Shown piece by piece: positions 516 through 63,900 of a stretch of DNA of 64,000 nucleotides (position 1 is the stretch's first letter; each line of letters starts with the position of its first letter). Both the position numbers and the translations under genes were made by a program. Location of the stretch: NCBI GenBank assembly GCA_020723385.1, contig DYIZ01000009.1:3676-67675 (forward strand). The letters are read 5' to 3'. Below the pieces are notes generated by a model, which had not been told where the DNA came from, made no database searches, and worked only from the letters and a program-made list of their open reading frames with translations. Source of the stretch: Candidatus Aquidulcis sp. Its GTDB lineage: Bacteria > Chloroflexota > Anaerolineae > Anaerolineales > UBA4823.

Positions 516-589
516 CCATCCACGAATATTCCACGAATACACGAAATGGGACGCATAAATTCGAGTATTCGTGGCCTATTCGTGGACGG
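516..589. repeat. Tandem-unit hairpin: CCACGAATAttCCACGAATA (520-539), spacer, TATTCGTGGccTATTCGTGG (566-585)
   Basis: Read directly. The two arms are exact reverse complements except for the 2-nt inter-unit spacer. A smaller hairpin AATCGGATA/TATCCGATA lies at 399-421. Confidence 0.75.
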
Positions 590-852
590 TTTGCAACCCA
601 ACCACAAAAAACATCAGAATCAGAAAAGGTAGTACCGCATAAGTCGCTATCAACGGTGACCAAAACGCCGGTTGAGTTTGTCGAAACCAGCGTTTTGGCG
701 CAATGTCTGGTCTCGATTACGGCAAAAAACGCCTACTCGACCAACGTAATAGCGAGTTATGCTCCATTGCCAGAAAAGATTGTTTCTATATCTTTTTATC
801 CTTGCATCCTGTTTCAACCCGATACACATGGAACGATGCATTGTGGTTTTAC

Positions 853-1690: not shown

Positions 1691-1707
1691 TGTCCGAGGA
1701 GATACTG

Positions 1708-7919: not shown

Positions 7920-9194
7920 ATGGCTACCGTATCTCTCGCACGTCCTGTTCGACCGATTTCCCCGGCTGTGGCTTCTGCGCAGCGGCGGATCAGCCGGGCA
8001 ATCGTCTATATCGTTTTGATCGTCATCGGGTTGATTCTCTTCACCCCATTCATTTTGGCATTTCTGGGCACCTTCAAGACCGATGCCGAGATCATTGCCT
8101 GGCCGCCGACCTTCTTCCCGGTCAAATGGCTGGTAGAAAACTGGCCCAGGTTGTGGCGCACTGATCTCGGCGGGCAGCCGCGCCCGGAGGGGTCTACCTC
8201 GCTGGGGTTGGTGGCGGGTGTATTCATATTCTTCGTCACCTTCCTGTTCGCCGGTCTGAGCAGCGAGGAAAAGGGCAAGGGATTGCCGGCCGCCATCGGC
8301 CTGCCGATTTGCCTGGGACTGGCTATCCTCACCGGTTTTGGAAGCTCCCTCTACCTGCGCCTGAGCTTCGAGGTCAAAAATACCACCTTCCTTTGGACCA
8401 CCGGTATCGCAGTCTCCATTTTTGCTCTGCTGGCAGTGGGCATCCTCTATATGTCTCGCCCCGATTGGCAGCGCGTGATCCTCGCCATGCTGCTGGGGAT
8501 TGCGATTGGCGCGGTCACGACGGTCCTGTTCCAACAATTGGCGGTTCTGGCCGGGGGCGGGCGGTTCTTCCGCTGGTTGTTCAATACGGCCTTGCTTTCG
8601 GTCATCCGCGCTTTCACAATGCTGGTTTTCTGCTCTATGGCCGCCTACGCCCTGGCCCGGTTGAGATTCCCGGGTAAAGGGTTGATCTTCAACTTCATGC
8701 TGCTTTCCATGATGATCCCCGGCGCTGTCACGCTGATTCCGACCTACGTTATCATCTCCAAGATGGGTTGGGTGAACATGGCTTATGCCTTGATCTTCCC
8801 CAGTATCGTCAATGCTTTCGGCATTTTCATGCTGACGCAGTTCCTCAAGGCCATTCCGCATGAACTGGAGGAGGCCGCCTTTATTGACGGGGCCTCCTAT
8901 TTCCAGATCTACAAAGACGTGATCCTGCCGCTGGCGCGCCCTGCCCTGCTGACACTGTTCATCCTGCAATTCCAGGGGATGTGGAATGACTTCCTGGCCC
9001 CGCTGCTGTACTTGAACACTCCGGATATGTTTGTCCTCAACGTGGCGCTGAGCACCTTCCAACAGCAGTACAAGGCTCAGTGGAACCTGACCCTGGTCGG
9101 CGCAATGATCAACGCCGTGGTGCCGTTGGCGATGTTCTTCTTCTTCAGCCGGTATTACATCGAGGGCGTGAGCTACGCAGGGGTAAAGGGATAG
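7920..9194 (+). CDS. Carbohydrate ABC transporter permease (MalG/UgpE-type) with about 140 extra hydrophobic residues after TM1
   Basis: EAA loop LEEAAFIDGASYFQIYKDVILPLARP. At 424 aa it is longer than the roughly 280 aa I expect. The extra region carries four hydrophobic helices by eye (res ~95-225). Confidence 0.88.
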   Translation: MATVSLARPVRPISPAVASAQRRISRAIVYIVLIVIGLILFTPFILAFLGTFKTDAEIIAWPPTFFPVKWLVENWPRLWRTDLGGQPRPEGSTSLGLVAGVFIFFVTFLFAGLSSEEKGKGLPAAIGLPICLGLAILTGFGSSLYLRLSFEVKNTTFLWTTGIAVSIFALLAVGILYMSRPDWQRVILAMLLGIAIGAVTTVLFQQLAVLAGGGRFFRWLFNTALLSVIRAFTMLVFCSMAAYALARLRFPGKGLIFNFMLLSMMIPGAVTLIPTYVIISKMGWVNMAYALIFPSIVNAFGIFMLTQFLKAIPHELEEAAFIDGASYFQIYKDVILPLARPALLTLFILQFQGMWNDFLAPLLYLNTPDMFVLNVALSTFQQQYKAQWNLTLVGAMINAVVPLAMFFFFSRYYIEGVSYAGVKG

Positions 9195-9303
9195 TGGTCA
9201 GTGAACAGTAATCAGTGAACAGTGATCAGTAAATCAATAAGCAGTGGTTCGTCATGCCTCGTCACGGATGACTGATCACTGATAACTGATCACTGATCAC
9301 CGG
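9193..9303. repeat. Tandem-unit hairpin built from CAGTGA(A/T)CAGT units, between the permease and DUF624 genes
   Basis: Left arm GTGGTCAGTGAACAGTAATCAGTGAACAGT (9195-9224). Right arm ACTGATCACTGATAACTGATCACTGATCAC (9271-9300). The reverse complements match at about 26 of 30 positions by eye. Confidence 0.75.
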
Positions 9304-9312: not shown

Positions 9313-9936
9313 ATGCTCAAAGCCTTTCACTTTTTCGGCCGCGCGATTTCCCTTTGGTGGCGTGAATGGGTGCATTTGACCTTCCTCAATATTGCCTGGC
9401 TGGCGTTGCAAGTCACCATCGTCGCCGGGCCGCCAGCTACCGCAGCAATGTACGCGGTTGCCCGGCGTTTGGCAGATGATGAATACCTGGAGCTGCGTCA
9501 TTATTGGCAGGCGATGCGCCAGATGTTCTGGCCAGCCTGGCGGTGGGGCGCAGTCAACCTGGTGGTGATCGGCGTCATCGTGGGTAACTTCTGGTTTTAT
9601 CAACATACCAGCGGCCTTCTAGTGACTCTCCTGCGGGTGATTTGGGCGACGATTGCCATCTACTGGTTTATCGCCAACCTGTTCTACTGGCCTTTCTGGC
9701 TGATCCAGGAAGACCACCGCATGGTTACAACTTATCGCAATTGCCTGTTGTTACTGGGCAAAAAGCCCGTACTCATCCTGACCATTTCTGTGCTTTGCGC
9801 CGTTTTGATCGTTGCCAGTATTCTCATCACCCTGCCGCTGGCGGCTTTGTTGATGATCTGGCTGGCCATTATCGGTATTGTGTTGGTCAAGGACGAAGTG
9901 AAGGGAATATCCAAACCAATTCAGAACACGGATTGA
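9313..9936 (+). CDS. DUF624 (YesL-like) membrane protein
   Basis: [32 protein letters not shown]... plus four or more TM helices. This family typically accompanies CUT1 sugar ABC operons. Confidence 0.7.
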
Positions 9937-16540: not shown

Positions 16541-16660
16541 TGTGCGTAATATGTAAATAAGAAACCTCCTAATTCCCTTATTCTTGTTCATGCCGAGGGT
16601 CAATATCCAATACCGCAATATGCTGCACCATTGGGTAAACGGCATACAGGTCAGAACTGT

Positions 16661-17123
16661 CCTCAGGCCGGCCTATAAGCCGCATTCTGTAGCGGACCCG
16701 GAGGCCCGCCGGTGTTCATCTCTCTGGGACGCAGGTCTCCCTGCGCCTCGTGCAGCCTACCCGGGACTCGAATGGTACGAGCAGCACCGTTGTCCCTGTT
16801 TGGCCTTGCTCCGGGCGGGGGTTGCCTGGCCGCGGACATTGCTGTCTGAATCCAGCTACGCTGGATCCGCGCCGGTGGTCTCTTACACCGCCTTTTCACC
16901 CTGACTGGCGGATGGCGTATAGCTTATGGCATATAGCAAATGGCTTTCGCCATAAGCTATAGGCCATTTGCTATTGGCCATCGGCCAGCGGTCTGTTTCT
17001 GTGGCCCGATCCAGTAAATTACTTCGCTCCGGGGTTTCCCCGGCGCCCTGCTCTGCGGAGTGCGGACTTTCCTCCAGTATCCCAGTGTCCCAGGATACCA
17101 GCGAACACCCGGCCGGCCTGAGG
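16661..17123 (-). ncRNA. rnpB: RNase P RNA, bacterial type A
   Basis: The minus strand carries GGAGGAAAGTCCGCACTCC, CACAGAAACAGACCGC, GGGTGAAAAGGCGGTGTAAGAGACCACC and ACAGAATGCGGCTTATAG. P1 pairs CCTCAGGCCGGCC (17123-17111) with GGCCGGCCTGAGG (16673-16661). Confidence 0.9.
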
Positions 17124-17192
17124 TAAACCCATCATACCCCCACGTACATCTCACGTCAACGCTATCAAACAGCTTCCTTTTGGAGAAATATC

Positions 17193-17277
17193 GGACGCGG
17201 ACGAACGCTGACAAACGCGGAATCCGGTTTTGTGTTTTACCAGGTTTTTCAGCGTGAGTCTGCGTCAATCCGCGTCC
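17193..17277. repeat. Long imperfect hairpin (GGACGCGGA-CGAACGCTGA ... TCAGCGTGAG-...-TCCGCGTCC)
   Basis: GGACGCGGA (17193-17201) is the exact complement of TCCGCGTCC (17269-17277). The inner units are partially complementary. It lies between rnpB and the lipoprotein gene. Confidence 0.6.
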
Positions 17278-17304
17278 AATTTTGTGGTCGCCTGCGGATA
17301 AATC

Positions 17305-18156
17305 TCACGGCCACGGAATTTCTATCGGATCCGTATATCCGTGCTTCTCCACCGTGTAAAGCAGCCCGTGGGAGGGGCTGTCGCACCCGTCTTCGTCGGT
17401 GAAAGTATAGGTTAACTCGTCGGTCGCCACAACCATGAAGATCAGGTTACCATCCTTGCACACATAGGCTTCGATCATGTAACCGCGGTCATCATCTTCG
17501 GTCATATTCACTTTTTCCCAGGTCACGGTCACCTCGTCGCCATCGCGGGTGGCAGTCACCCAGCCGGGCGGGCCGTACAACGTCGAATGCGGCAGCACCA
17601 CCGGCGCAACCTTCACCGAAAAGATATCGCCTGTGACTTCCACCACCGAAGCGGCAATCCAGCACTGGTAGTTGATATTGTCCGGCTGGATCCACAGCCA
17701 TGTGCCCGAAGTATTGCGTCCCCACACCGTTCCCGTGTCGCCTTCGTACATGCCCCAGGCGTAGAGGTAGCCCTTCGCCGGGCCGTAGCGGCAGTTGGCC
17801 TGCATTAAGACTTTGATCCTCGGAAAGCTGTAAGTTGGTGATGGTGTGATAGTGGGAGTCGGCGTCACCGTGGGCGTCGGGGTCTCGGTGGGTGTGGGCG
17901 TCCCGGTGGGAGTCAGCGTCTCGGTTGGCGTCGCGCTGGGAGTGGCGGTCTCCGTCGGGGTGGGCGAAGCCGTGGGCGTGGGAGTCTCAGTGGGTGTGGG
18001 GGTTTCTGTGGCGGTCGGCGTGCCGGTGTCTGTGGGGATTAGCGTCGGCGCGGCGGTATCCTCCGGCAGCGACCCGGCCGCGCCGGCCAGATTGCAGGCC
18101 ATGAGCGATAGAATCAACGGTACGATCAGCCAATAGATTTTCGTTTTTCGAGACAT
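17305..18156 (-). CDS. Secreted lipoprotein with a Thr/Pro-rich linker and SH3b-like plus Ig/FN3-like C-terminal region
   Basis: Start trimmed to ATG 18156 ([21 protein letters not shown] lipobox, GGAGGA RBS). There is a long TPTxTxTP repeat linker. No specific family was recognised. Confidence 0.7.
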
Positions 18157-18324
18157 AGCCGCTATCCTCCGAGGAAATGAAACAACCATCGTAAAGGCAA
18201 AGCGTGAAGGTGTCAACCGACAAATTGGTTTGTAGTATGCGCTTTAGCGCATACTACAAACCTGTAATCTATTGGTCGTGATGGCGGGCGTAAAGGGGTC
18301 ATCCGCGCTATAATTCCACTAACC

Positions 18325-20172
18325 ATGAGCGACATTTTCGATGACCGGCTGCGCCAGCTCGCGGCGCTCTTCCCCGAAGCCTTCGCCGATGGGGTTCTCG
18401 ACCTCGACGGGCTGCGCGCCTCCCTGGGTTTGGCTGCCCCCTCCGGCCCCGAACGTTTTTCCTTCACCTGGGCGGGCAAACAAGCCAGCCTGCAACTGCT
18501 CCAATCGCCCTCACGCGCTACGCTTGTCCCTGCATCCGAAATCTCATCACCTTCGGATGGCGTTTTCATCGCCGGCGACAACCTCGAGGTGCTCCGCCTG
18601 CTCTACAAGCCCTACTTCGGGCGTGTTCGCCTGATCTACATTGATCCCCCGTATAACACCGGCTCCGATTTCGTTTACCGCGACAACTACGCTGACCCGC
18701 TGGATGCCTACCTGCGTCTCACCGGGCAAGCCGACGCGGCTGGCAACTGGCTCACCTCCAATCCCGAAACGGGCGGGCGTTTCCACTCGGCCTGGCTTTC
18801 GATGATGTATCCCCGGCTGTTCGTGGCCCGCCAACTGCTGCGCGACGACGGCGTGATCTGCGTCAGCATTGACGATCACGAGCTGCCCCACTTGCGCCTG
18901 TTGATGAACGAGATTTTCGGCGAGACGTGTTTTAAAAACACGATCATTGTGCGGCGCGGCGTCAAGAGTGTGCAGGCGCAATTCGAGAATGTGGACGCCC
19001 TGGCGGTTGGGCATGAGTACATCGTCGTTTACGCTAAAAGCCCGGAAGCGCGTTTCCGCCACCTGCGCCTGCCGCTCGACGAGCCGAAGCCGGGCGGCTG
19101 GAACAATCACTGGCGCGGCACCGAGCGCCCGACGATGCGCTACGAGCTGTTCGGCATCACCCCCGATCGCGGCCAGTGGCGCTGGAGCCACGCCCGCAGC
19201 CTGCGCGCCGTCGAAGCTTACCGCCGCCTGGCGGCTGACCTCGGCCCCAACCCCTCGCAGGCTGAAATTGATGAATGGTGGCGGGCGGAGGGCGCCCGGC
19301 TGGGGGGAGAAGTTGACCTGCTGCGCCTGTCGAAGACCGGCAAGCCGGAGCATTACGTGCCCCCCACCGAGACGCGGCTGGGCAGCGACCTGTGGGCGGA
19401 TCTCAGCCCGCGGGGCAATGCGGACCTGGAGGCTCTGCTGGGCCAAAAGGTGTTCGACAACCCCAAGCCGGTAGCGCTCATCCGCCGCCTGGTTGAATGG
19501 ATTACCGGCCCGCAGGGGGGCGACTTAGTGCTGGATTTCTTCGCCGGGTCGTGCGCCACAGCCCAGGCAGTGATGGAAGCCAACGCCGACGACGGCGGCG
19601 ACCGGCGCTGGATCATGGTGCAAATCCCTGAACCTTTGCGTTCCCCTGTCCTCCTCCCTCACCCCCAGCCCATCTCCCAGGGGGAAAGAGAAGAGGATGA
19701 GCTTCAAACCATCGCCGATATCGGATTAGCGCGGATACGCGCGGTCATCGAGCGGATGGAAAACCCGGCGGGCGTGCGCGTCTTTCGGCTGGCGGCCTCG
19801 CACTTTCGGGAGTGGCAGCCCCCCGAGGATGGCGACCCCGCCCGGTACGCGGAATCGCTCGCCAAAGCCGTTGACCCCCTTCTGCCCGGCTGGACTGATG
19901 CGGGGGTGCTCTACGAGGTTGCGCTGCGAGAGGGGTTGGGCCTCGATTTGCAAATCGAGACGATCCCGCTGCCCGGCCAGCCGGATTCCCCGCTCTATCG
20001 GATCGTTGACCGCCAGCAGGTTTTCTATCTTTCGCTGGCCGATGATTTGACGGGCGTCGCAGGCCTCGAAACGCTCATTCCCCCCGGAGCGCGCTTCATC
20101 TGCCGGGACGCGGCGCTTGACGATACGACCGCTGCCCGGTTGGCGCTCTACTGCCGGTTGAAGACGATTTGA
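18325..20172 (+). CDS. Site-specific DNA methyltransferase, N6-adenine, beta class (type III Mod-like)
   Basis: Motif IV IYIDPPYNTGSDFVYRDNY lies N-terminal to motif I LVLDFFAGSCATAQAV. Size and motif order match Mod-type enzymes. Confidence 0.85.
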   Translation: MSDIFDDRLRQLAALFPEAFADGVLDLDGLRASLGLAAPSGPERFSFTWAGKQASLQLLQSPSRATLVPASEISSPSDGVFIAGDNLEVLRLLYKPYFGRVRLIYIDPPYNTGSDFVYRDNYADPLDAYLRLTGQADAAGNWLTSNPETGGRFHSAWLSMMYPRLFVARQLLRDDGVICVSIDDHELPHLRLLMNEIFGETCFKNTIIVRRGVKSVQAQFENVDALAVGHEYIVVYAKSPEARFRHLRLPLDEPKPGGWNNHWRGTERPTMRYELFGITPDRGQWRWSHARSLRAVEAYRRLAADLGPNPSQAEIDEWWRAEGARLGGEVDLLRLSKTGKPEHYVPPTETRLGSDLWADLSPRGNADLEALLGQKVFDNPKPVALIRRLVEWITGPQGGDLVLDFFAGSCATAQAVMEANADDGGDRRWIMVQIPEPLRSPVLLPHPQPISQGEREEDELQTIADIGLARIRAVIERMENPAGVRVFRLAASHFREWQPPEDGDPARYAESLAKAVDPLLPGWTDAGVLYEVALREGLGLDLQIETIPLPGQPDSPLYRIVDRQQVFYLSLADDLTGVAGLETLIPPGARFICRDAALDDTTAARLALYCRLKTI

Positions 20173-20178
20173 ACGATT

Positions 20179-20643
20179 ATGCCCGCGCACAGCAAACCTC
20201 TCGCCGCCGGTGATACCTCAGCTTTCGAGTTCGTCCAGGAAATGCTGGCGGGCGACCCCACGTTTGGCATCAACTTCGACCGCATCCAATGGGACAGCCG
20301 CGATAATTGTTACGCCATCGTCGAGTTTCTGCTGTGCGACGAAGTGCAGTTCGAGCGCGGCGTCACGCCGCACACCAGCCATCCCAACCGCTATTTTCAT
20401 AAGAACGCGCAGAAATTCATCTCGCTCTGGCGATTGGCGCAGCGCATCGGGGCGAAGCTGTACCTGGTCAATTACGCTAAAGGGGGAACGCAATACGCCG
20501 ATCAGGTGATGGTGATGGTGGTTAAAACAGTTGATCCCCAGTCCGAAACGCCCGTGCAGACCGAGGATCACCCGCTCACCCGCCAGCAATTTTCACGCTG
20601 GTTCCGGCGGCTCAACCGGCGGGGAGATGGGTCGCCAGCGTAA
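20179..20643 (+). CDS. Hypothetical protein, 154 aa, probably co-transcribed with the methyltransferase
   Basis: It starts 6 nt after the MTase stop and is followed by a strong terminator. No family was recognised (…NCYAIVEFLLCDEVQFERG…HPNRYFHKNAQKFISLWRLAQ…LYLVNYAKGG). Confidence 0.65.
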   Translation: MPAHSKPLAAGDTSAFEFVQEMLAGDPTFGINFDRIQWDSRDNCYAIVEFLLCDEVQFERGVTPHTSHPNRYFHKNAQKFISLWRLAQRIGAKLYLVNYAKGGTQYADQVMVMVVKTVDPQSETPVQTEDHPLTRQQFSRWFRRLNRRGDGSPA

Positions 20644-20656
20644 ATTCCAAAGACTC

Positions 20657-20694
20657 AAAAGCCCCGAATGGCGGTCAGGCCATTCGGGGCTTTT
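20657..20694. terminator. Bidirectional intrinsic terminator between convergent genes
   Basis: AAAAGCCCCGAATGGC (20657-20672), loop GGTCAG, GCCATTCGGGGCTTTT (20679-20694), with a T-run on the + strand and an A-run on the other side. Confidence 0.8.
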
Positions 20695-20739
20695 GATTGT
20701 TTCGTTGTCAACCATCGCGGGAGATTGGATGACCCAGGG

Positions 20740-22300: not shown

Positions 22301-24274
22301 TCATTCGAACAACCTATCCCTTTCCATCGCCTTGAACATATCTCCCGCTGATTTGAAGCGGTCGTTTGGATCTTTCTCCAAGGCCTGCAAGATGGCGTCA
22401 GCTACCCCATTGGGGATAGACGCCGTTACGTCGCGCGGGTCTGCGGGGGGTTGCTGCAAGTGAGCGAGCATCATCGCCCCGGGGTTATCGGCCAGAAACG
22501 GCAGTTGCCCGGTGAGCATCTGGTACAGCATCACCCCCAGGGCGTAGATGTCGGCGCGCCCGTCCACCTCGCCTGCCGAGCGGATCTGCTCGGGGGCCAT
22601 GTAATTCAGCGTGCCCATCATCAGCCCGGTTTTGGTCGCGCCCGTGTCGCCGCCCAACATCTTGGCGATGCCGAAATCCGTCAAGACCGCTGACAGATGA
22701 CCGATAACCGGCGACAAACTGACTCCTGCCATCGGCCGCCCGTCATCTGTCAATCGCAGCAACACATTCGACGGTTTCACATCTCGGTGAACCAGCCCCT
22801 GGGCGTGGGCGTAATCCAGCGCTTCGCATAAATCCCGGATGACAGGCCGGGCTTGCTCATAAGAGATTGGGCCGGAGTCGGTCATGAACTGCCCCAAATC
22901 CTTCCCCGAGATGAATTCCATAACCATGTAATAGGTGCCGCTCACATCCCCAAAATCGAACACCTGCACAATGTTCGGATGGCGCAAACTGGCGACCGAT
23001 TGCGCCTCACGCTCGAAACGGGCGCGGAAATCGGCGTCGGCGGCCAGGCTGGCGGGCAGGATTTTGATCGCTACCCAGCGGTTCAGCCGCGTGTGGCGGC
23101 CTTTGTACACCTCCGCCATGCCGCCGCGTCCCAATCGTTCGAGCACTTCGTACGGGCCAAACTGTGTGCCGGTGAGCAGCCCGGTGATCTGCGACGGCGA
23201 AGGTTGCACCGCTTGCTGGGAGGCCACATAACTGGCCCAGGCTTTCGACGGGTACTGATAAGTTTGACCGTCATAGACCAGCATACATTTTTGCGACAGG
23301 TCACGCAGCAAGCCGCGCAGCGTGGTATCGCTGGCGGCGCGCCAGGCCAGCTCGTTGATCTGGCGCAGCGTAGATTGCTCCGCGCCGGTCAGGTTGCGCC
23401 AGTAATATTCGAAGTGCGCGGACAATTCCTGCATGGCGCGGGTTTCGATGTCGCGTGAGACATTGGAGCCCCCAGGGGTTTCTAAAACCCCTGGGGGCTG
23501 GAGTATCTCGAAGGCGTGGAAGCAGGCGACTTGCAGCCCGAGTGGGAAGCCGCCTGCGAATTGGAAAATGAAATCTTCGACCGGTTGGGAGAAAGCCACC
23601 CCGGCGGCTTGCGCCGGCCCGCAGATGATCTGCCGCGCCTCGGCTTCGGATAGCAGCCCCAGGAACAGAGGGGCAAAGATGTTGAAGAACGGGCTGGACA
23701 AGATTTCCTGCGATTTGCCGGAATAGGTCAGTTGGATGAGCGGCCGGGCCGAAGCGGTGATGAAGGCCAGTTGATAGCGCCCGGCAGCCGAGCGCAGCGC
23801 GTTGAAGAAGTTGACATCCAGGCCGGAGTTGCTGCTCAACCGCTCGAATTCGTCGAGCATCAGGATCACTTTCAGGCTGCGTTGGTTCAACCGGCGGATT
23901 GCCCGCTCGAAGGCCAGACGCCCCGGGGTCGCCACCGCCGCGTCGAGAATGGCATCCCCTTCCAGCCCGCGATCGTCGAGCGTCGCCGCAATCTCTCCTG
24001 CCAATGCGCCGAAAATCTCGTCGTGGCTGCCCTCGCCGAGAACTTCACAATCCAGGTAAACCAGCAAATAATCCGTTCCCAGCCCCAATCGCTCCAGCGT
24101 TGCGGGCCGCATTAGGTGAAACAGCAGCGAAGTCTTGCCGATCTTGCGCGGGCCAACAATCGAGACCGACTGGTTGCCTTTAAGAAAGGCCGCGATCTCG
24201 CCCAACTCGTGTTCACGGCCAAAGAATAACTCGGGCGAGCGGACGGGGCCGCGGGAGACGTAGGGGTTGGTCAT
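22301..24274 (-). CDS. STAND/AAA-like ATPase fused to a C-terminal Hanks-type Ser/Thr protein kinase
   Basis: N-terminus NPYVSRGPVRSPELFFGREHE, Walker A GPRKIGKTS, Walker B ILMLDEFE. C-terminal kinase motifs GRGGMAEVYKG, VAIK, HRDVKPSNVL, DFGIAK, MAPE. Confidence 0.88.
   Translation of the reverse strand: MTNPYVSRGPVRSPELFFGREHELGEIAAFLKGNQSVSIVGPRKIGKTSLLFHLMRPATLERLGLGTDYLLVYLDCEVLGEGSHDEIFGALAGEIAATLDDRGLEGDAILDAAVATPGRLAFERAIRRLNQRSLKVILMLDEFERLSSNSGLDVNFFNALRSAAGRYQLAFITASARPLIQLTYSGKSQEILSSPFFNIFAPLFLGLLSEAEARQIICGPAQAAGVAFSQPVEDFIFQFAGGFPLGLQVACFHAFEILQPPGVLETPGGSNVSRDIETRAMQELSAHFEYYWRNLTGAEQSTLRQINELAWRAASDTTLRGLLRDLSQKCMLVYDGQTYQYPSKAWASYVASQQAVQPSPSQITGLLTGTQFGPYEVLERLGRGGMAEVYKGRHTRLNRWVAIKILPASLAADADFRARFEREAQSVASLRHPNIVQVFDFGDVSGTYYMVMEFISGKDLGQFMTDSGPISYEQARPVIRDLCEALDYAHAQGLVHRDVKPSNVLLRLTDDGRPMAGVSLSPVIGHLSAVLTDFGIAKMLGGDTGATKTGLMMGTLNYMAPEQIRSAGEVDGRADIYALGVMLYQMLTGQLPFLADNPGAMMLAHLQQPPADPRDVTASIPNGVADAILQALEKDPNDRFKSAGDMFKAMERDRLFE
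23467..23499. repeat. Perfect 15-bp-stem palindrome inside the ATPase-kinase coding sequence (in-frame)
   Basis: AGCCCCCAGGGGTTT-CTA-AAACCCCTGGGGGCT. It encodes ...LQPPGVLETPGGSN... in the linker between the ATPase core and the helical region. Confidence 0.85.
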
Positions 24275-24293
24275 AAGTTATTCCTCGAGATTT

Positions 24294-24368
24294 GGTAAAA
24301 CGTAATCCGTAAAACGTAATCCGTAAACCACCTCTTACGTTTTACGTCATTACGTTTTACGTGTTTAC
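24294..24368. repeat. Tandem-unit hairpin built from GTAAAACGTAAT units (2 direct + 2 inverted)
   Basis: GGTAAAACGTAATCCGTAAAACGTAATCCGTAAACC (24294-24329), ACCTC, TTACGTTTTACGTCATTACGTTTTACGTGTTTAC (24335-24368). It occupies most of the 97-bp spacer between the two ATPase genes. Confidence 0.8.
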
Positions 24369-24371
24369 TCT

Positions 24372-27300: not shown

Positions 27301-28322
27301 AGGCCGGTGACGACGCCGTAAACCAGGGCGCGGTTGATCAGCGTGTCAATATCCCACAGCCGGTAGTGCGTGATAGAGATGGTCAGCGCCAGCGGGACGA
27401 GCAGCAACAAAATCAGATAAATCGGCTGGCCGATAATGGTAAATAGAAGAGACGGCAGTCCGGGGGTCTTGAGCGGCGGCAGAACGAGGGGCGAGACATG
27501 AAAGTAGAAATATCCCAGGAACGCTCCTACCAAAGCGATCACCACCCATTTGGTTTGCTGGCGTTGGATGAGAGTATTGCAGCGATAACGCAAAATTTGA
27601 GCGAGGATGCCGCTGCCAAACCAGCCCAAAATGACAGCCAGCAGGCTGGCTATGCGGACGAAACCATAACCCCGTGCAAATACATCTGGATCACGTGAAA
27701 AAATGAATGCGAAAAAGCGGGCGGGAGTGGACATCTGGGATATGTCCGGCGAGTGACTGGGAATGATCGCCCACAGCGCCAGCCAGCCAACCCAAAACCA
27801 GGCCAGTAGACGCGTCCAGCGCGGGTAGAATTGTCCATCGGGGAAAAGATAAAACACCAGCAGGGTAGAGCCAACGCCAATCCCCTGGATGATCGTGATG
27901 ATCAAAGCGCGGCCGGGCGGTCCAATTTTGAGGACTTCCATATTCGGTGTAATGACGGTTGGGAAGGTAAGCAGCGCCAGGGAGAGCAGCACCGCCATCC
28001 AGTCGTCGGAGCGCCGCCAGAAGATGAGCGCCGCAGTGATGATGAAGAGCAGCAGGGTGAGCAGATCGAGAGCGGTTGTGTAAATGATGAATGCTTCGGG
28101 GCTGAATCCAAGCTGTTCGAGCCACATTCTTTCGATCTGTGGGATGATCGCGGCTTGCCCCATCCGGGCTGGAACCGAGATCGCCAGCATGAACAAGATG
28201 ATAGCTGCCAGCGCCATCCATACCGTGCGAATGAAATGGAGCGCTGCGCCGCGCAGCGGCGGGCGTTCTGTGGTAATCGGTTGGACGGCCTTGATGGGTG
28301 GGTGGGGGAGGGGATGGCTCAT
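24372..28322 (-). CDS. Polytopic membrane / GAF-like sensor protein with a C-terminal STAND/AAA-like ATPase module
   Basis: About 10 hydrophobic helices in res 30-390, then IDRSFYREKVDF. A GAF-like block follows (…YGAVYLLQADKKFEIADAHGLP…LVGVLALGPRLSGQDYSREDQALLLDLADQAG). The C-terminus reads NPYVVGTPLQTGSPLFFGRED, SQRRTGKTS, LLMLDEFEELE. Confidence 0.85.
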   Translation of the reverse strand: MSHPLPHPPIKAVQPITTERPPLRGAALHFIRTVWMALAAIILFMLAISVPARMGQAAIIPQIERMWLEQLGFSPEAFIIYTTALDLLTLLLFIITAALIFWRRSDDWMAVLLSLALLTFPTVITPNMEVLKIGPPGRALIITIIQGIGVGSTLLVFYLFPDGQFYPRWTRLLAWFWVGWLALWAIIPSHSPDISQMSTPARFFAFIFSRDPDVFARGYGFVRIASLLAVILGWFGSGILAQILRYRCNTLIQRQQTKWVVIALVGAFLGYFYFHVSPLVLPPLKTPGLPSLLFTIIGQPIYLILLLLVPLALTISITHYRLWDIDTLINRALVYGVVTGLLGAGYFGVVIIVQQLLRSVTQTQSALVIAVTTLVIAALFMPMRGRVQSIIDRSFYREKVDFRQMFMEFSRCVRTIIDLGELVHTLVERTTEMLHIQYGAVYLLQADKKFEIADAHGLPEENPALPLDIVTMNRLNNGQVVSLPKGAVYKLLVPLIAPEIESTTLSPRFQAEKATSTLVGVLALGPRLSGQDYSREDQALLLDLADQAGTSIQVAWLIEDRQSEVKRREAAEHRLEEYRDSPIGRAETLAQQLITEPFSVLERLHVQAQAAGKDPDAASVLANLPGALTNQEGGRSQSLATLAEGYYYLFSGFSTPELLPVGLRNIIVQLVSPESSQWNGAAEALSLYRRCHSALEANSIAQITGEKGIGDKGTGDRTTTSQSPAPYPLPPIPPFLSDLSAALTQFQPVISALGAYERVDTAQDKLAYLAGAVERLRHIDRFARTELGSADRPLVQRIAESWLLVVTGAMGELQTRAQLACQLLTRHTWQDDIVSLVLCLTNNGRGAALNLRVTIAPDPDYTVVDHQAKVERVAPGEEIQVRLRVRPRLEKGVDQFRARFVILYTDPRGPDQVENFADITRLLPTEGEFQHIPNPYVVGTPLQTGSPLFFGREDTIAFVKENLAALHRNNLVLISQRRTGKTSLLKQLPVRLGDNYQAVYIDGQALGLDPGLPNFFLSLATEIAFALEDRKFEITPPEMSDFADSPAAYFERVFLANVRQAIGERHLLLMLDEFEELESAVRRGDLEPSIFGFLRHLIQHTENLSVIFCGTHRLEELAADYWNVLFNISLYRHIGFLEKTEAMRLIQEPVAPFNMRYDDLALDKIWRVTAGHPYFLQLLCHSLVNQHNKSQHSYITVANVNDALEEILASGEAHFMYLWAESTSVERLVLTALSRMAPLTGQATAISLVDYLSERGVSVERQAIGDALHHLSLRDILIESRESDAAAEIYRWKLGLLGLWVEKYKSLSRVIDENKL
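26122..26212. repeat. Tandem-unit inverted repeat (GGGGATAGGGGGCAG units) inside the 1316-aa coding sequence, in-frame
   Basis: GGGGGGATAGGGGGCAGGGGATAGGGGGCAGGGGA (26122-26156) faces TCCCCTGTTCCCTTATCCCCTATCCCCTTCTCCCCTG (26176-26212). It encodes GEKGIGDKGTGDRTTTSQSPAPYPLPPIPP. Confidence 0.75.
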
Positions 28323-35956: not shown

Positions 35957-35981
35957 AAAATCATCTCTTCAAATCATCTAT

Positions 35982-41256: not shown

Positions 41257-41410
41257 GATTTTAGCACGTTTTGGCTAATCGCGAGGGGGCCAAGCGGATA
41301 AACCGAATTTTGATATTTGCGCCCGCGAAGCAGGCGCAAATATCAAAATTTCGGCAAATCCGGTGGGGAAATGGCTAAGAAACAGATTTTTCGGTTAAAA
41401 TCAAGCCAAG

Positions 41411-45017: not shown

Positions 45018-45067
45018 GGTGCAAAAGCGCCCACTACGAACAGGCTCGTAGTGGGCGCTTTTGCACC
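45018..45067. terminator. Bidirectional terminator (22-bp perfect stem)
   Basis: GGTGCAAAAGCGCCCACTACGA-ACAGGC-TCGTAGTGGGCGCTTTTGCACC between convergent genes, with TTT following on the + strand. Confidence 0.8.
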
Positions 45068-54311: not shown

Positions 54312-54384
54312 GCGTAAAACGTAGTGCGAAAAACGTGAAACGTAGACCGTAAATCGGGATACATTACGCTTTACGTTTTACTCG
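54312..54384. repeat. Degenerate member of the CGTAAAACGTA hairpin family, in the ruvB/upp divergent spacer
   Basis: GCGTAAAACGTAGTGCGAAAAACGTGAAACGTAGACCGTAAATCG (54312-54356) faces ATTACGCTTTACGTTTTACTCG (54363-54384). It shares the unit with 24294-24368. Confidence 0.65.
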
Positions 54385-54436
54385 TCTGGGCTATAATAAT
54401 CACAATCCCCCTGGCGCTATTCTATGGAGACCCCTA

Positions 54437-55063: not shown

Positions 55064-55113
55064 AGGTTGCAAGTAGCAGGTTGCAGGTTGAAAGTTTAAA
55101 ATCTTTGGCGGCT

Positions 55114-55139
55114 CCCCTCTCCCAGAATTGGGAGAGGGG
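55114..55139. repeat. REP-like GC hairpin (CCCCTCTCCCA-GAAT-TGGGAGAGGGG)
   Basis: 11-bp perfect stem about 50 nt after the upp stop. It is preceded by AGGTTGCA tandem units (55064-55092) and followed by a G-rich tail. Confidence 0.7.
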
Positions 55140-57837: not shown

Positions 57838-57935
57838 TTTTGCACTCATGTGCTTGCTCCTCCAATCAATCTCAGGTACACTGTCGTTAGCAGCGAGTCA
57901 GATACACATCTCCCGGTTTCACTGGAGACCGCCCC

Positions 57936-60900
57936 GTGGTCTGTCCGAAGTGCCAACACACTGAGTTCGACTCTCACGCGCCGTGCCCCAGGTGCGGCTT
58001 CAGCGGCGACGCGGCGCGGCTCGAACGCCTCTCGCAGCTAAACTTTTTGCTCGATGAGCTGGGCAAGTGGGGGGATGTGCCCGCCAGCGAGCGCGAAAAT
58101 CTTCGCCGGATTTATGGCCTGCAGCGGCGCAAGCTCGAAGTCGAGTTGAATCTGCGCCAGCCGCCCCTCGACCCGAAAGCGGCGGCAGAATCCCGGCTGA
58201 AACTCATTCAACTCACTGGTTTTCTGCAAGCCATCCCGCAATTCGTCAACGACCGGGTGCTGGCAGTTAATGTCGCCCAGGCGCTGCGCGATTATTTGTA
58301 CGCCGAGCGCCAAACCCTCGCCGACCAGCTCCTCGACGCGCCTCCCACCCCCGAGCCGATGGCCGGAATAGCTGCCCTGGCGCGCTTGAAATTCCGCCTC
58401 GAATCGCTCGAAAAGTTGCACAACGATGGCAAGCTGCTTGCATCCGATAAAACCTTTACCCGCATTCAGGCCGAACTGAATCGCGCCATAGGGCAGTACG
58501 AAGACTCCCTCGGCTTGCGCCACCGCCCCGCGCTTTCCCCCTCTCGCCCCTCGCCCCACCCTCCACCCTCCACCCTCCACCCTCCACAACCCTCACACTC
58601 CGCCCCTCGCCCCTCGGCCCCCGCGCCTCGCCCCCCGCGTCCCCCGCTCACCTTCGACCGCATCTGGCGCACGCTCCTCTCCGAGCGCACTCTCAACGTC
58701 ATGCTCTTCCTCGGCGTGGCGCTGCTCTTCGCCGCGGCTGTCTCGCTCGTCGTCTGGAACTGGCAGGCCTTCCCGCCCTGGCTGCAACTGACCTTCATCG
58801 CCCTGTTCACCGGCATTTTCTACGCCCTGGGTTGGTACGTGCGCACCCGCATGAAACTGCGCGGCTCCGGCCTGGCGCTGACCGCTGTGGCCTCGCTGCT
58901 CGTCCCGCTCGATTTCTACGTCGTTTATCTCTACGGCGATTTCCCCCGCGCCATCTGGCCAGATGTCTGGCTGCTGGCATCGGGCGTGTGCCTGGTTTTG
59001 TATTTGCTCACCGCGCTTTTCGTACAGGCTGAATTCTTCGGCTACCTGGTTGCGCTGGCTGGCGGGAGCGCCCTGGCTGCGGCTATGCAGGTAGGCGGGA
59101 TCAGCGCCGATGTGTGGCACGGCGTGCTGGGTGTGCTGGCCTTAGCGTATGCCTTCGCCGGGGAGGGATTGTTCTCGGCGCGCGGGCGCTGGCGGCTGCT
59201 GGCTGGGCCGTTGTGGCGTTCAGCGATGGCTGGCGCGGCGGTGCTGATGCTGTTGATGCTCGGACGTGGCTGGCAGACGGACGCCAGCGATGCGTTTTAC
59301 CTGGCATTGGCAGGGGATTGGTGGCTTGGTGGGATTATCTTCGCCCTGGGAGTGGCCCGCTTCCGCAGCCGGACGATTGCGTTGGCCGCCGCGATCAGCT
59401 TTCCCGCCGCAGCGCTGCTCACCCAGCGGGTAATCTTCTCCCATTGGGGCATCGAGACCGCCTGGAATGGCGTGGGCCTGGCGCTGCTGGCCCCCGTTTA
59501 CCAGTGGGTCGGGTGGAAGTTGATCGTGCCTGCCGTAAAACAACCCTCCGCGGGGAGTGATGAAAAACCGCCCGCCCCGGACGCAGCCCAATCGAAGGCG
59601 GCCGATTTCCGCCGCGCCTGCGGGCGGATTATTCTTGGGATGGGAATTTTAGTGATGGCGGTTGCCGCTGCCTGGTCGCTGGCCGACGCCAGCGCGGTGG
59701 GCGTGGTTCACCCCCTGTTGGCGGCGAGTGTTGCGCTGATTGCCGCGTTGTGGCGGCGTCCCTGGCTGACGCTGATCGCTAGTGGATTGCTGCTCTCCGG
59801 CTCGGCCGGTCTGACCTCCGCCCTGGGCGGGGCGCTGTCGCAATTGGGTCTGACCTGGTCGCTGCTGTCGGTTTTGCACGTGATCGCAGCGGTGAGGCTG
59901 GGGAGCGGAGGGCGAGGGGCGGAGGGCGAGGGCCGAAGGGCGAAGGCCGCCAGGCAGGCTGAGCGTAGTCGAAGCCCGCTGCTCCTCTCCGGCTGGATCA
60001 TCGCCGCGCTGGCGCTGCTGCCGCCATTGTTAATGCTCGACCGCCCGATCTCCACCAACGCCCTCGGTAACTGGATTTTGCTCAACGGCTGGCTGGCCTA
60101 CCTGTCGGCGAAAGAATCGCCCCGGCGCACGTCAGGCTGGCTCGATGCGCGCCTGTTCCAGTGGTTGTCGGCGCTGTCTATCCTGCCGTGGGTGTGGCTG
60201 CTGTGGGAGCGTTGGAAGCCTGCCGACAGCCAGTTGCCATTGGCTTATAGCGCGACCGCCTGGGCGCTGCTGGCGTTTGGGCTGTGGGCGCAGCGACGCG
60301 CTCATGCTTTCGGTTTGCCGTGGAAGGTTGCGGCGCACCTGGCAGCATTACTGGCGCTGGCGGTCAGCGTCGTCTATTACGATCCGCTCTGGCTGGCGAT
60401 CACATTCTTGCTGGCTTCGGCGTTCTATTTCGCGGCCGCGCCGCTGCTCCACGAGCGCTGGTGGCTAGCCGCCGGGGGAGCAACCTTCGCCGTGGGTTGG
60501 ATGGAAGGGTTGGACTGGCTGAAGCTGCCCGCCGATTTCCAAAGCCTGGCGCTGGCGGCCGTCGTATTGGCTTTCGTCGCGGCGGGCAGCCTGTTGCAGC
60601 GCCGCCGGGTTCATTCGAGGGAATTTTTCTGGCCGCTGTACCTTGCGGCGCTGGCTATCGGATTGGCGGCCTTCGGTTGGGGATTGATCAATATTCTCGA
60701 TACCGGAGGCAGCGACGCTGCGCTGACCTGGGCGGCGGTGGGGCAGTTGGTTTTGGCCGTCGCGGCAGGCTGGTACGCCTGGCTAACGGGAAGTGAGCAT
60801 TACGGGCATATCGCTGCCTGGCTGGGCGTGTTCGCCGGGGCGCTGCTTGCCTCTGCATACAGCCGCGGCAGCGGGCGCTCGGCGGCGCTGGCCGCGCTGA

Positions 60901-63900
60901 CTGCGGTGGTGTACGTGCTGGCGGAGCGGGGAATGTATTGGGTTGGGAGGGGCAGCAGGGGCAGACACGTAGGTCTGCCCATACGGGGGTGGCCCCTGCG
61001 GGGGTTGCCCCTGCGTGGGTGGGCGCGGCGGGCGTGGCGATTGTTCCGCCGCCCGCTGATCGTGGCGGGCTGGGCAGTATCCGTTGGCGCGATTGGGCTG
61101 TGCCTGCTGCGCAATCTCGTGCTGCTGCATGGCGGCCCGACGCGCGAAACCTGGGCTATTGTTGGGCTGACGTTGGTGACGGCGCTGTACGCAGTTTCGG
61201 CGGTGATGTATCGCAAGCAGAAGAAGATTGCCCCACGGTTCGTCTGGCTGGCGGCGGCGCTGATCTTCGCCCCATGGACGCTGCTCACTCACCAGGGGTT
61301 ATATTTTTGGCCGCGACCGGCTGCGCCCGATTACGCTATCAGTTGGATGATCCTGGCGCTGCTGGAAATTGGCCTGGGGGCGGGATTATCTGCCGTGTTG
61401 GGCGATCCCAACCGGCGTTGGACTCGCCCGCTGTGGGCGATCCCCCATCTCTTGACGCCGTTCGCCCTGCTGTGGGGCATCGCCAGCCCGCAGGCATCGT
61501 CAGTCTCAGTGATGTTGGGGATCGTCTTTTATCTCATCGCGACGGCGCTGGATTACATCAATCGCCCATCGCCCGATGCGGCGCCGCGCGCCCGCTTCCT
61601 GTACCCGGCGGCGCTGCTCATCCCGCTGTGGGCGGTGTATCTGCTGGCTCGATACGTTCCCGACGCGCCGCAGACGACTTACGGCTGGCTGGTATTGGGC
61701 TTCACGCTGCCCATGCTCGTGGCGGGGGTGTGGCTGGCGGAGCGGGAAAAGGTTTTTCGCATTCCATTTTACGCCGCGGCTTATCTCTCGATGCTGGTTG
61801 GCACGGCGCTGCTGGCCCACGACCGCCCGGCGCTGATCGGGGCGCTGCTGTTCGATGTGCTGGTGGCGCTGGTATCGGCCTGGCAGTTCCGCGAGAGCCT
61901 TTGGCTATATCTGGTCTGCGCCGAGCTGCCCGCTGCGCTGCTGCTGGCCTCGCTGGAAATCGGCATCCCGGTTGACCGGCAAGGTTGGGTGGCGATTGCC
62001 ATCGCGGGCGTATATTTGCTGGCGGCGCGGCTGCTTGGCAGAAACCTGACAGGTCTATCCCGCAGCCCGATCAAACCCGGTGACGCACAAAAGACAACAA
62101 CTGAAGCAGGTCTGAGTATCAAGAAAGACCTGTCAGGTCTTGACTTCATCTCCCCATTGCTCGTCACCGCCTTCGCGCTGACGGCGATCGGACTGCCGCT
62201 GTCCAGCCGCGACCGGGTGGGGGCGCTCGTCGGGTATGGGGCGGCGGCGGTGATCTACGCGCTGACCTCGGTCTGGCTGCGGCAGCCGCTGCTGCTCGCC
62301 CCGGCTATCGGACTGGCGGCTGTGCCGTATTGGGTGGGGGTGCTGGAATTGGGTGTGGCGCAGCGTGAGTATGGGCTGTCGGTCTGGCCGTTCATTGCGA
62401 TTGTGCTGCTGCTGGCCTATGGGATTGATTATTTGTCCCGGCCTGGTGGAGAACCCCCTCCCCAGCCATCCCCCATTTCGACTACGGAAATGGGGGGAAG
62501 CGGAGGGGGCCAGGGGTTCCCGTGGTATTCCCCGGAGCGGTGGCTTTCCGCGTTGTGGGATCGCATCAACGGTTGGTGGGCGCTGTATTTCTACGCGGCA
62601 GCCTACCTCGGCGCGGCGGCGAGTGTGGCGTTGTCGCTGGCTTACCCCGACCGGCAGCCGATCGCGCTGGCGCTGGCGGCAATCGTGTTCAGCCTGGCGC
62701 TGTGGCGCTTCCGGCTGCGCGGCTGGCTGCTGATTGCGGCGGGCGCGTGGCAGTTGTCGGTGTTGGCGGCTATCTACTGGTATTTTTGGGCGAACGAGAT
62801 GCCCCTCGGCTGGGCGACGACCGCCCTGGCCTTTTTGCCCGTCGTGTGGGTCACGGCGATCTGCGGGCTGGTGTTGCAGCGCCAATTGGGCGAGCCGTCT
62901 CCCCTGGGGCTGGGCGGGGCAGCGCTTTTCAAAGGCTGGTCGCGCCCGTTGTATCTGCTGGCGGCGGTGGATGTCGTTCTCACGCAGACCGGCGCATTCT
63001 CGTCGAGCGGCGATAGCGCCTGGGTGACGTTATCGAACGCGCTGTTGCTGGCGGCGCTGGCGACAGCCTGGGCGTCGCGACCTCTCGGCTGGCTGTCGGC
63101 GGGATTGGGGTTGCTCTCACTGATCCAGGGTTTAGCATGGGTGAAAGCCGACGAGACCATTTGGCCGTGGGCGCTGGCGCTGCTGGCATTGGGGTATGGC
63201 TCGGCGGGTTACGGACTGAAAGCGGCGCGGCAGATCCAGGCCAAAACCTGGATCCCGGCCTGGGTGGAGCCGCTGTCAGGAGTGTGGGAGCGCCCGCTGC
63301 GCCTGGGCGGTTGGTGGCTGTCGTTCGCCAGTCTGCTTCCGGCGTTGTTGAACGGCGCAATCGAAATCATCAAGGTTGTGGTATTGCGGAGCCTGCCCAA
63401 CGAATTCCTCGAGATGGCATCCATCCGGTCGAACATCCCTCAAGTTCAGATGACGGTAGCCGTCTTTGCCATTTTGGGCTTATTCTACCTCCTATCCGCT
63501 TTTGCCGACCGGCGGCGCTGGCTGGGGTATGGGGCGGTGGGATTGCTGCTGATGGCCTGGTCGCTGGAATTTTTGTTGGTGTGGGGCGAGCGCGATGTGC
63601 AGGTGTATGTTCTCCCGGCGGGGCTGTATCTTCTGGGGATCGGCTGGCTGGAGTGGCGCTTCGGCAGCCGCACGCTGGCGCGCTGGGTGGACTATGCCGC
63701 TCTGCTGCTCCTGCTCGGCCCGGCCTTCTACCAATCATTGGGCGATAACGGCTGGCGCTATGCGCTGGTGATGGGCGCAGCCGGTTTGTTCGTCATCTGG
63801 TGGGGCAGCGCCCGGCGGCTGCGGCGCTTCCTGTACGTGGGCGTCCTCGGGGTGACGCTGGACATCGCCGGGCAGCTCATCGAGCCACTGCTGTCGGTCA

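Follow-up and report, generated by a model that had tools for sequence, protein, structure and literature searches.

The 64-kb stretch of DNA analyzed here ("the window"; contig DYIZ01000009.1 of assembly GCA_020723385.1, positions 3,676 to 67,675) comes from an Anaerolineae (Chloroflexota) genome, Candidatus Aquidulcis sp., and contains hairpins in which each arm is itself a direct repeat of a short unit. A preliminary description singled out six such loci, and they raise the question of what kind of element keeps one architecture while its units mostly differ. We favor, with a probability of about 0.6, the reading that they are hairpins of the short tandemly repeated repetitive (STRR) type: short tandem arrays, mostly of 7-nt units, that occur as inverted pairs and fold into a long segmented stem on either strand. 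All counts for the source genome refer to these 64 kb. The window is an ordinary chromosomal segment with housekeeping and signaling genes (about 50 open reading frames (ORFs) scanned against Pfam), and the orthologues of its 1316-aa STAND ATPase all come from metagenome-assembled genomes (MAGs) of Anaerolineae/Chloroflexota.

Architecture and significance of the hairpins

The six loci lie where the preliminary description had placed them and account for the window's longest local inverted repeats. Tandem Repeats Finder (TRF) reports their arms as arrays, with a period of 11 at 519, 7/14 at 9198 and 9262, 14 at 16912, 10 at 17195, 7/14 at 24295 and 24335, and 7/14/15 at 26124 and 26173. A 7-nt period, overlooked at first, is present in four of the six (loci 2, 3, 5, and 6), and the 14-nt super-periods consist of two alternating heptamers. 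The unit junctions lack complementarity (TT vs CC at locus 1, for instance), which interrupts the stems with regular 1x1 or 2x2 internal loops, and the inverted-repeat search returned several equally good pairing registers. The six loci have no sequence in common.

Arrays were scored as paired when the reverse complement of a TRF array aligned within 130 nt with a local score of at least 14. The null model consisted of 100 second-order Markov simulations of the window, and a reverse-only (non-complement) search of the real sequence served as a second control. The window contains 44 arrays compared with 11.6 ± 3.3 in the simulations, and 12 arrays with a period of 7 or 14 compared with 1.9. Eight arrays, located at five loci, have an inverted partner, whereas none was found in 100 of 100 simulations and the reverse-only control on the window sequence gave 0 paired arrays. 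The array at 17195 (locus 4) scores 12 and falls below the pairing cut-off. These results place the frequency of the hairpins above that of composition-matched controls, and the combination of one architecture with several unit sequences recurs on a metagenome contig, L034. Folded as RNA, the six loci have energies of -32 to -56 kcal/mol (z scores of -4.4 to -8.2), and none of the 200 shuffles performed per locus was equally stable. The window holds 7 paired loci and at least 5 unpaired arrays.

Locus 1 is a compound hairpin of 155 nt (472-625) located upstream of a dioxygenase gene (703-1587) and folds with -74.9 kcal/mol (z -5.9). Its inner arms (514-545 and 560-591) carry 2.6 copies of CCACGAATA with period 11, extend over 32 nt at 88% complementarity, and form a core of -44.4 kcal/mol (z -8.1); the outer arms (472-497 and 600-625) are TTCTGGTTCTG and CAGAATCAGAA. 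Locus 2 (9194-9300, plus strand; -46.3 kcal/mol, z -5.2) consists of five CAGTRAW units, a 33-nt loop, and five WTYACTG units, and its 37-nt arms (9194-9230 and 9264-9300) are 84% complementary. It fills the 118 nt that separate an ABC permease gene (7920-9194) from a DUF624 gene (9313-9936) in a sugar-utilization operon and belongs to the CAGT heptamer family of phage contigs.

Locus 3 lies within rnpB, as the preliminary description had proposed. The gene for this bacterial type A RNase P RNA (16660-17120, minus strand) matches RF00010 over its full length (232 bits, E 3e-74), and the hairpin (16905-16988, minus strand; -55.6 kcal/mol, z -8.2) extends P12 by a 64-nt insertion at its tip relative to the Rfam model. 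Five helical segments composed of AUGGC and AUAGC heptamer variants follow a 14-nt period with 2x2 internal loops between them, and the units are similar to the native P12 segment GAUGGC/GCCAUC. The arms pair as 16912-16930 with 16949-16967 (95%) and 16926-16944 with 16963-16981 (89%) and are phase-shifted by one 14-nt unit, which is the shift that independent slippage in each arm would give. A second rnpB helix (16823-16880, minus strand) is also enlarged, with 29 nt compared with 8 in the Rfam model, and contains its own small hairpin, GGAUCCAGC-GUA-GCUGGAUUC.

Locus 4 (17187-17283, minus strand; -46.7 kcal/mol, z -7.2) begins 22 nt past the stop of a 303-aa gene (17305-18216, minus strand) and lies upstream of the promoter-like site of rnpB (TTGACG-17-TATGAT, 17159-17131). 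The inverted repeat described there was recovered, with 36-nt arms (17187-17222 and 17248-17283) that are 75% complementary. The tandem layout ascribed to it is weak: the 10-nt units GGACGCGGAC, GAACGCTGAC, and AAACGCGGAA are loose, matching at 82% with period 10, and TRF calls no array in the right arm.

Locus 5 (24294-24368, minus strand; -32.1 kcal/mol, z -5.2) contains 2.4 copies of GTAAAACGTAATCC, a loop, and the complement; the rCGTAAw heptamer family to which it belongs is widespread. It fills the spacer of two co-directional STAND NTPase genes, 3 nt past the stop at 24372 and 20 nt ahead of the ATG at 24274. These adjacent genes (22301-28322, minus strand) encode a GAF plus nSTAND1 protein of 1316 aa and an nSTAND plus Ser/Thr kinase protein of 657 aa, and the pair is conserved in many Anaerolineae. 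A second copy of the GTAAAACGTAAT element is present at 54312-54384 in the divergent ruvB/upp spacer, with units at 54314 (plus strand) and at 54363 and 54370 (minus strand); as a hairpin it is degenerate (z -1.3 to -2.0). Its terminal unit provides the -35-like TTTACG hexamer of a upp promoter-like site (54370-54397).

Locus 6 (26122-26212, minus strand; -52.8 kcal/mol, z -4.4) is in frame within the 1316-aa GAF/STAND ATPase ORF (24372-28322, minus strand), so the coding position given in the preliminary description is correct. Its 26-nt arms (26131-26156 and 26184-26209) are 81% complementary. The G-rich arm, 2.4 copies of GGGGATAGGGGGCA on the plus strand, and the C-rich arm encode GEKGIGDKGTGD...PAPYPLPPIPP, a variable inter-domain linker. 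The units are GGGGATA/GGGGGCA, with the G-rich arm first.

Unit families, turnover, and polarity

The units were followed in two sets of contigs. A metagenome scan with a dimer of the locus-5 unit gave at least 120 stretches (L025-L144; 711 kb) from about 60 datasets, with sources that include Anaerolineae and KSB1, and the counts from this set are among the matches listed. The phage set consists of 89 IMG/VR contigs (L156-L244; 785 kb) selected by the locus-2 unit. Both sets were chosen for carrying one unit, so densities in them are biased and unbiased counts were used where possible. Genes on the metagenome loci were called with a simple ORF and ribosome-binding site (RBS) caller that recovered 9 of 9 database proteins exactly. 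The view that the units are mostly unrelated holds within 64 kb and fails overall; it is a small-sample impression because the units recur in these metagenome and phage contigs. The single unit shared among the 21 locus pairs of the window is the expectation for about 20 dispersed families.

The metagenome stretches contain 54 rCGTAAw sites with a complementary array downstream and 57 single arrays. Half of all their arrays (362 of 728) have a period of 7 or 14. An inverted partner accompanies 148 arrays (116 of them with period 7 or 14) compared with 1 in the null control. The 395 period-7 arrays comprise 147 distinct canonical heptamers, and 24 hairpins are built from other units, away from the selected rCGTAAw pattern. 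Within 9.8 kb, contig L034 carries five hairpins that draw on four different units, and its guaB product is 100% identical to an Anaerolineae MAG protein; one repeat-bearing contig clusters with Anaerolineae/OLB14 proteins. On L058 (Ga0187892_10000303), which carries rCGTAAw arrays, an amidohydrolase clusters at ≥90% with proteins of candidate division KSB1, and the rCGTAAw heptamer family is therefore also found outside Chloroflexota. The 89 phage contigs that match CAGTRAW have portal, tail, tape-measure, and major-head genes. They contain 143 CAGTRAW hairpins in many intergenic spacers (for example L172 949-5266 and L169 3756-3849), and the loops are often AAAGGCAAAA or its complement. One unit can be shared by several sites of a contig, as in L034 and L053 and at four sites in L172. 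What is conserved in the rCGTAAw and CAGTRAW families is the 7-nt unit alone, with no longer element. The hairpins are thus a property of this Anaerolineae lineage that also occurs in scattered other genomes and tailed phages.

The CAGT and rCGTAAw families do not co-occur in the two sets (0 CAGT hairpins in the listed L025-L144 and 0 of the reverse in L156-L244), and the 64-kb window carries both. The units were also considered as 3+1+3 quasi-palindromes (TCA-G-TGA, AAT-G-ATT, ATG-G-CAT), and this was rejected because 4-9% were observed and 8-9% are expected.

Hairpins are gained, lost, and resized between close relatives. The window has about 6 in 64 kb, compared with 1 in 297 kb of 19 other Anaerolineae genomes, the single case being a 10-nt unit, GACACAGATT, in L020. 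The closest relative (L021; 78% amino-acid identity, syntenic over about 13 kb) has no hairpin in its 14.6-kb syntenic contig. Locus 5 is absent there: the spacer is 21 nt compared with 97 nt in the window, without a target-site duplication, and the presence/absence polymorphism suggested in the preliminary description is thereby seen at an orthologous site. Orthologues of locus 6 retain a G-x-K-G ... P-L-P linker and have no hairpin, and at this site the relative has a 15-nt tandem repeat (GDKSL/GDKNT) with no complementary arm. The locus 6 hairpin appears to have been sharpened in place on a Gly/Pro-rich linker seed, because the orthologues share this linker and its GGN and CCN codons are complementary. 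The rnpB of relatives is not syntenic in L021-L023 and is not contained in any fetched locus.

Two series of closely related contigs show how a site changes. Downstream of guaB, contigs L149 and L145, whose flanking genes are 94-98% identical, have spacers to the next gene of 425 and 19 nt. The additional 406 nt in L149 (7474-7879, corresponding to L145 4793-4796) lie between the guaB stop and the next RBS and consist of arrays, hairpins, and duplicates of the RBS region. Three diverged RBS/gene-start copies with the motif AACCGGCGGTTCAYCAGCGGTTGG are present in this block. Selection on the guaB-upstream hairpin was considered and not accepted: it has 0 substitutions between two strains, but the block of low divergence also spans guaB. 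The second series is an intergenic phage site in three contigs that are 95-99% identical, with about 33 units (about 20+13) at L170 3190-3420, about 10 (about 8+2) at L209 6968-7037, and about 1.5 at L205 ~1489-1495. The units are AATGAAY/RTCATTG, set in unequal arms around the common center AACAATTG. No target-site duplication was found at any of the filled/empty pairs (locus 5; L149/L145; L170/L209/L205). The graded unit numbers together with the lack of target-site duplication lead to the conclusion that the hairpins grow in situ, arm by arm, around a fixed center. The arm lengths are not coupled; TRF arm lengths are uncorrelated (r = 0.05) and their median difference equals that of random pairing. 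Together with the graded series, the uncoupled arms, the several pairing registers, and the non-complementary unit junctions fit slippage of each arm on its own from a small seed. L170 also contains a 316-nt non-repetitive segment (8598-8913) inside an ACTCATT/GAACATT array that is missing in the 99%-identical L198 (2460-2473), and this segment may be a small mobile insert for which arrays are the target.

The hairpins sit where an additional stem is tolerated: just past stop codons, at the tip of rnpB P12, and in a disordered protein linker. Coding sequence makes up 86% of the listed metagenome loci, yet 60% of their 72 hairpins lie wholly between genes; the median position is 6 nt past the upstream stop and 62 nt ahead of the next start. 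Phage hairpins have medians of 9 nt past the stop and 22 nt ahead of the start, with 5 of 143 inside coding sequence.

The arms have a near-absolute polarity with the purine-rich arm 5'. The ratio is 54:2 by alignment and 39:1 by regular expression for the CGTAA family, 66:0 and 143:0 for the CAGT family, and 24:7 for other units, where G exceeds C in 26 vs 4. This polarity is an intrinsic property of the hairpins because a structure of n units, a loop, and n reverse-complemented units reads identically on either strand. It equals the "convergent" arrangement reported in Xanthomonas (PMC4692102). The orientation of the loop relative to transcription shows only a 2:1 bias in phage hairpins. A fixed orientation of single rCGTAAw arrays upstream of starts was sought and rejected (7 vs 5); these arrays mostly lie after gene ends (26 vs 15).

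Origin and function of the hairpins

The two candidates of the preliminary description, a generating mechanism (here of the slippage or template-switch kind) and selection for stable RNA or DNA hairpins (here at gene boundaries), remain the leading explanations. For an STRR-type hairpin, the arms would gain length as replication slips on units that come from a short stem or array already present, and the inverted partner would be made or refreshed by intramolecular template switching, a process that creates and maintains RNA hairpins (PMC8794818). In mRNA the products could act as sites of pausing or termination, as barriers to exonucleases, or as RNase III-type processing sites, in line with proposals for the STRR hairpins of cyanobacteria, and their function is probably that of 3'-end or intercistronic RNA hairpins. 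A pyrimidine-rich 3' arm would form a weak rY:dR hybrid in the transcription complex and could permit pausing or termination without a U-tract in both directions; the observed polarity would for this reason be termination-competent both ways.

Several observations weigh against the STRR-type reading with growth by slippage. The period is 11 at locus 1 and 10 at locus 4, rather than 7. The recurrence of rCGTAAw and CAGTRAW in many unrelated genomes, KSB1, and phages is unexplained by neutral slippage, and slippage gives no reason for the presence of one unit at several sites per genome (24294 and 54312; L034, L053, and L172). Duplex energy does not account for the polarity, and the hybrid-based account given above is one that we infer. 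No U-tract or T-run follows the stems, and none of the loci is called by a terminator scan. How many families there are, and whether a trans-acting enzyme exists, is judged here from 64 kb of genome.

There is some room, at odds that we put well below even, for hairpins that are more than slippage debris and form a polarity-constrained system common to phyla and phages. The hairpins would then be U-tract-independent bidirectional terminators or processing sites in which the pyrimidine 3' arm is decisive, or the products of a strand-asymmetric, sequence-specific generator (an unrecognized enzyme or mobile mechanism) that seeds CAGTNNN and rCGTAAw in Anaerolineae, KSB1, cyanobacteria, Beggiatoaceae, and tailed phages.

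A similarly doubtful explanation is that the hairpins are non-autonomous mobile elements, comparable to MITEs (miniature inverted-repeat transposable elements) or to REPINs, the hairpin-forming pairs of repetitive extragenic palindromic (REP) sequences, and are moved in trans by a hairpin-recognizing enzyme, for example an IS200-type Y1 transposase or a REP-associated tyrosine transposase (RAYT), whose gene would lie in another part of the genome or in a phage. A unit family would then be a set of mobilized copies. Mobility would fit the occurrence of the rCGTAAw unit at two window loci 30 kb apart, of one unit at several sites of single contigs (L034, L053, and four sites in L172), and of units common to many unrelated genomes and phages. 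It would also fit the strict polarity, which is expected from defined element ends, and the presence/absence differences between close strains. The filled/empty pairs point the other way, since none has a target-site duplication or fixed ends, and 1.5, 10, and 33 units at one orthologous site represent growth rather than insertion; this speaks against plain MITEs. An inverted partner is lacking in about half of the arrays, and in rnpB and the coding sequence the units look as if they arose locally. A hairpin-binding enzyme had been suggested, and the search for one was negative: the Pfam scan found no transposase, RAYT, or reverse transcriptase among the roughly 50 window ORFs, and all-vs-all clustering of 752 + 951 ORFs from the 120 + 89 loci returned only ABC ATPases and phage structural proteins and no recurrent enzyme family near arrays, although a single-copy RAYT would escape such sampling.

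It is improbable that the hairpins are binding-site arrays for sequence-specific DNA or RNA proteins (operators, iterons, nucleoid proteins, or S1/Csp/CsrA-type regulators) with one factor per unit family. Conservation of the units across genomes while the spacers are not conserved, and a half-site polarity typical of dimeric binders, would suit such a role, and the terminal unit at 54370 overlaps a -35-like hexamer. In Nostoc, deletion of heptamer repeats alters reporter expression and an unidentified partner was postulated (bioRxiv 10.1101/2022.06.06.494920), and TAACTGA repeats have been suggested to involve a translational regulator (PMC4679880). However, loops of 4-50 nt and unit numbers vary freely, unlike operator geometry, and more than 100 different heptamers would require as many factors. 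Hairpins also occur within rnpB and a coding sequence, and single arrays have no orientation bias toward gene starts (7 vs 5).

Chance structures or MAG assembly artifacts are effectively refuted: although the source contig is MAG-like and repeats and palindromes are classic sources of misassembly, 0 of 100 simulations yield even one paired array, the architecture recurs across about 60 datasets and several assemblers, in hundreds of contigs, one hairpin preserves a reading frame and another the rnpB fold, and an independent Logan assembly of SRR13164373 reproduces three loci base for base, so the hairpins are not artifacts of one assembler.

Unpaired arrays and neighboring features

Heptamer arrays without an inverted partner are also present in the window. 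GGGCCGA is repeated 6.4 times at 32196-32240 (minus strand), in frame in the N-terminal linker of RecG. This array is not in the RecG of the closest relative L021, and it represents the same repeat process without a hairpin. AGGTTGC is repeated 3.9 times at 55064-55090 (plus strand), beginning 1 nt past the upp stop. CCACCCT (4.6 copies) and CGCCCCT (5.4 copies) occupy 58543-58647 (plus strand), and a heptamer/14-mer array with 2.8 copies of GCGGAGGGCGAGGG is located at 59905-59949 (plus strand). The idea that these last two regions are the arms of a hairpin split by an insertion was ruled out because both are in frame in one giant ORF, 57891-63998 (plus strand). This ORF exceeds 2036 aa and runs past the window end; it has 65% GC, a strong T-over-A skew, and an N-terminal CxxC...CxxC, and its in-frame heptamer and 15-nt arrays include one at 60984-61038. 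The fragments 58038-58589, 58593-59120, 60938-61975, and 62133-62885 of this region gave no Pfam family match. A period-13 array, AAATCATCTCTTC x3, fills the spacer of two tandem DegV genes (35958-35996) and has no inverted partner.

The simpler GC palindromes that the preliminary description had grouped with the hairpins are ordinary and unrelated to them. Three are inside coding sequence (23457-23509, 53 nt, in the kinase-fusion gene; 60960-60979; and 62457-62509), and 55114-55139 is a plain stem-loop after upp. Other ordinary perfect palindromes are located at 20649-20702, 45018-45067, and 41306-41350. Those at 20649-20702 and 45018-45067 are terminator-like; two of the three have an A-tract/stem/T-tract order between convergent genes and look like bidirectional terminators, and one is operator-like, with 21-bp arms in a divergent promoter region. 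A perfect palindrome with 17-bp arms (18227-18262) lies in the divergent promoter region near a DNA methylase gene (N6_N4_Mtase, 18325-20172). The methylase gene and a 154-aa ORF are inserted (18227-20643) relative to the synteny of L021, and this segment may be a restriction-modification or orphan methylase island.

Relation to known repeats and significance

Arrays of heptanucleotide repeats have been known in cyanobacteria since 1990 and were later found in Xanthomonas, Burkholderia, and Beggiatoaceae. The STRRs of cyanobacteria reportedly lengthen P12 (Vioque 1997). The units here differ from the canonical STRR1-3 sequences, with presumably only the CAGT core in common with STRR1/3. The preliminary description knew of no formal account of this kind of element, but STRR hairpins (PMC2670836) and convergent heptamer pairs (PMC4692102) have been described. 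In filamentous cyanobacteria, 7-bp STRR repeats can fold into hairpins, both in the hupS-hupL spacer and close to 3' ends, with a proposed role in transcript stability, translational coupling, or termination (PMC2670836). STRRs were located inside the RNase P RNA gene of heterocyst-forming strains by Vioque 1997, as cited in PMC2858038. In the 64 kb of this genome 7 paired loci and at least 5 unpaired arrays are dispersed, and related contigs such as L034 are dense in hairpins. The window hairpins likewise have tandem 7-bp units that are mostly intergenic, the same location between cistrons or near 3' ends where an array pairs with a nearby complementary array, and the same presence within rnpB, here as the P12-tip insertion of heptamer-derived units. 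They differ in their host, an Anaerolineae rather than a filamentous (heterocyst-forming) cyanobacterium, in having different and more numerous units, in the periods of 10-11 at two loci, and in the hairpin that is in frame in a coding sequence. We found no description of strict arm polarity, phage sharing, or strain-level turnover for STRRs in the literature.

The G-rich heptamers GGGAATC of Xanthomonas and GGGGA(C/T)T of Nostoc form 70-75 convergent inverted pairs per Xanthomonas genome (PMC4692102). They too are heptamer arrays that are mostly intergenic, and between related species they vary in length while the type (single or paired) is kept. Only locus 6 qualifies as a convergent G-rich pair, defined as at least two GGGN-type units with a complementary array downstream. 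The published repeats have one unit family per genome compared with several in 64 kb here, and the focus of that work is on G-quadruplexes, which most units here cannot form. The TAACTGA direct repeats of Beggiatoaceae, cyanobacteria, and Bacteroidetes lie just upstream of starts, with 1 of 170 sets inverted (MacGregor 2015, PMC4679880). The right arm of locus 2 contains an exact TAACTGA, and the unit of this locus is one mismatch from the published repeat; TAACTGA arrays read CAGTTAT on the other strand, so it is essentially one unit, and both are intergenic. Both also have a patchy, cross-phylum distribution without a known transfer mechanism. The arrays described here, in contrast, occur in the window and in phage contigs, more than half form inverted pairs, and they lie just past stop codons. 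Heptamers are an over-represented class of long simple sequence repeats in several bacterial groups (Mrazek 2007, as reported in PMC4679880 and PMC4692102), and a 2022 preprint still called the function of heptamer repeats unknown (bioRxiv 10.1101/2022.06.06.494920). No paper linking such repeats to Chloroflexota was found in the literature searched.

Other classes of small palindromes share single features. REP sequences and their composites, the bacterial interspersed mosaic elements and REPINs, are likewise extragenic hairpin-forming repeats that are dispersed in families, vary between strains, and often lie between cistrons of operons; the REP in malE-malF stabilizes the upstream mRNA. They are imperfect palindromes of about 20-40 nt with a conserved sequence, whereas the hairpins here are arrays of short tandem units that also occur inside an RNA gene and in frame in a protein, places from which REPs are not known. 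REPs are tied to RAYT transposases (PMC3116915), and no RAYT is present in the window or recurrent in the 209 repeat-bearing loci. MITEs and Rickettsia palindromic elements are also small palindromic insertions. They are sequence families with defined ends (MITEs with a target-site duplication), whereas the loci here lack these and grow by unit number. Rickettsia palindromic elements can occupy RNA genes and in-frame positions within proteins. The hairpins resemble intrinsic terminators and the T7-type RNase III hairpins of phages in position, directly after cistrons and between structural genes of tailed phages, and in having long stems with internal loops, but the stems here are 25-40 bp, much longer than the GC-rich stems of intrinsic terminators (about 5-12 bp), and no U-tract follows them.

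These comparisons identify the hairpins as the Chloroflexota counterpart of the 7-bp repeat hairpins of cyanobacteria and Xanthomonas, not as a new element class. What appears to be new is the range of hosts: hairpins are plentiful in the Anaerolineae (filamentous Chloroflexota) and were also seen in KSB1 (at least one contig) and in the genomes of many tailed phages. Filled and empty sites that form a graded series, a location directly past stop codons, and a near-absolute polarity likewise appear to be additions to the literature. Such hairpins break assemblies, inflate intergenic regions, add low-complexity peptides, and lengthen structural RNAs, and annotators of Chloroflexota MAGs should expect them. 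The filled and empty sites, together with position and polarity, make the origin and function of heptamer repeats experimentally approachable.

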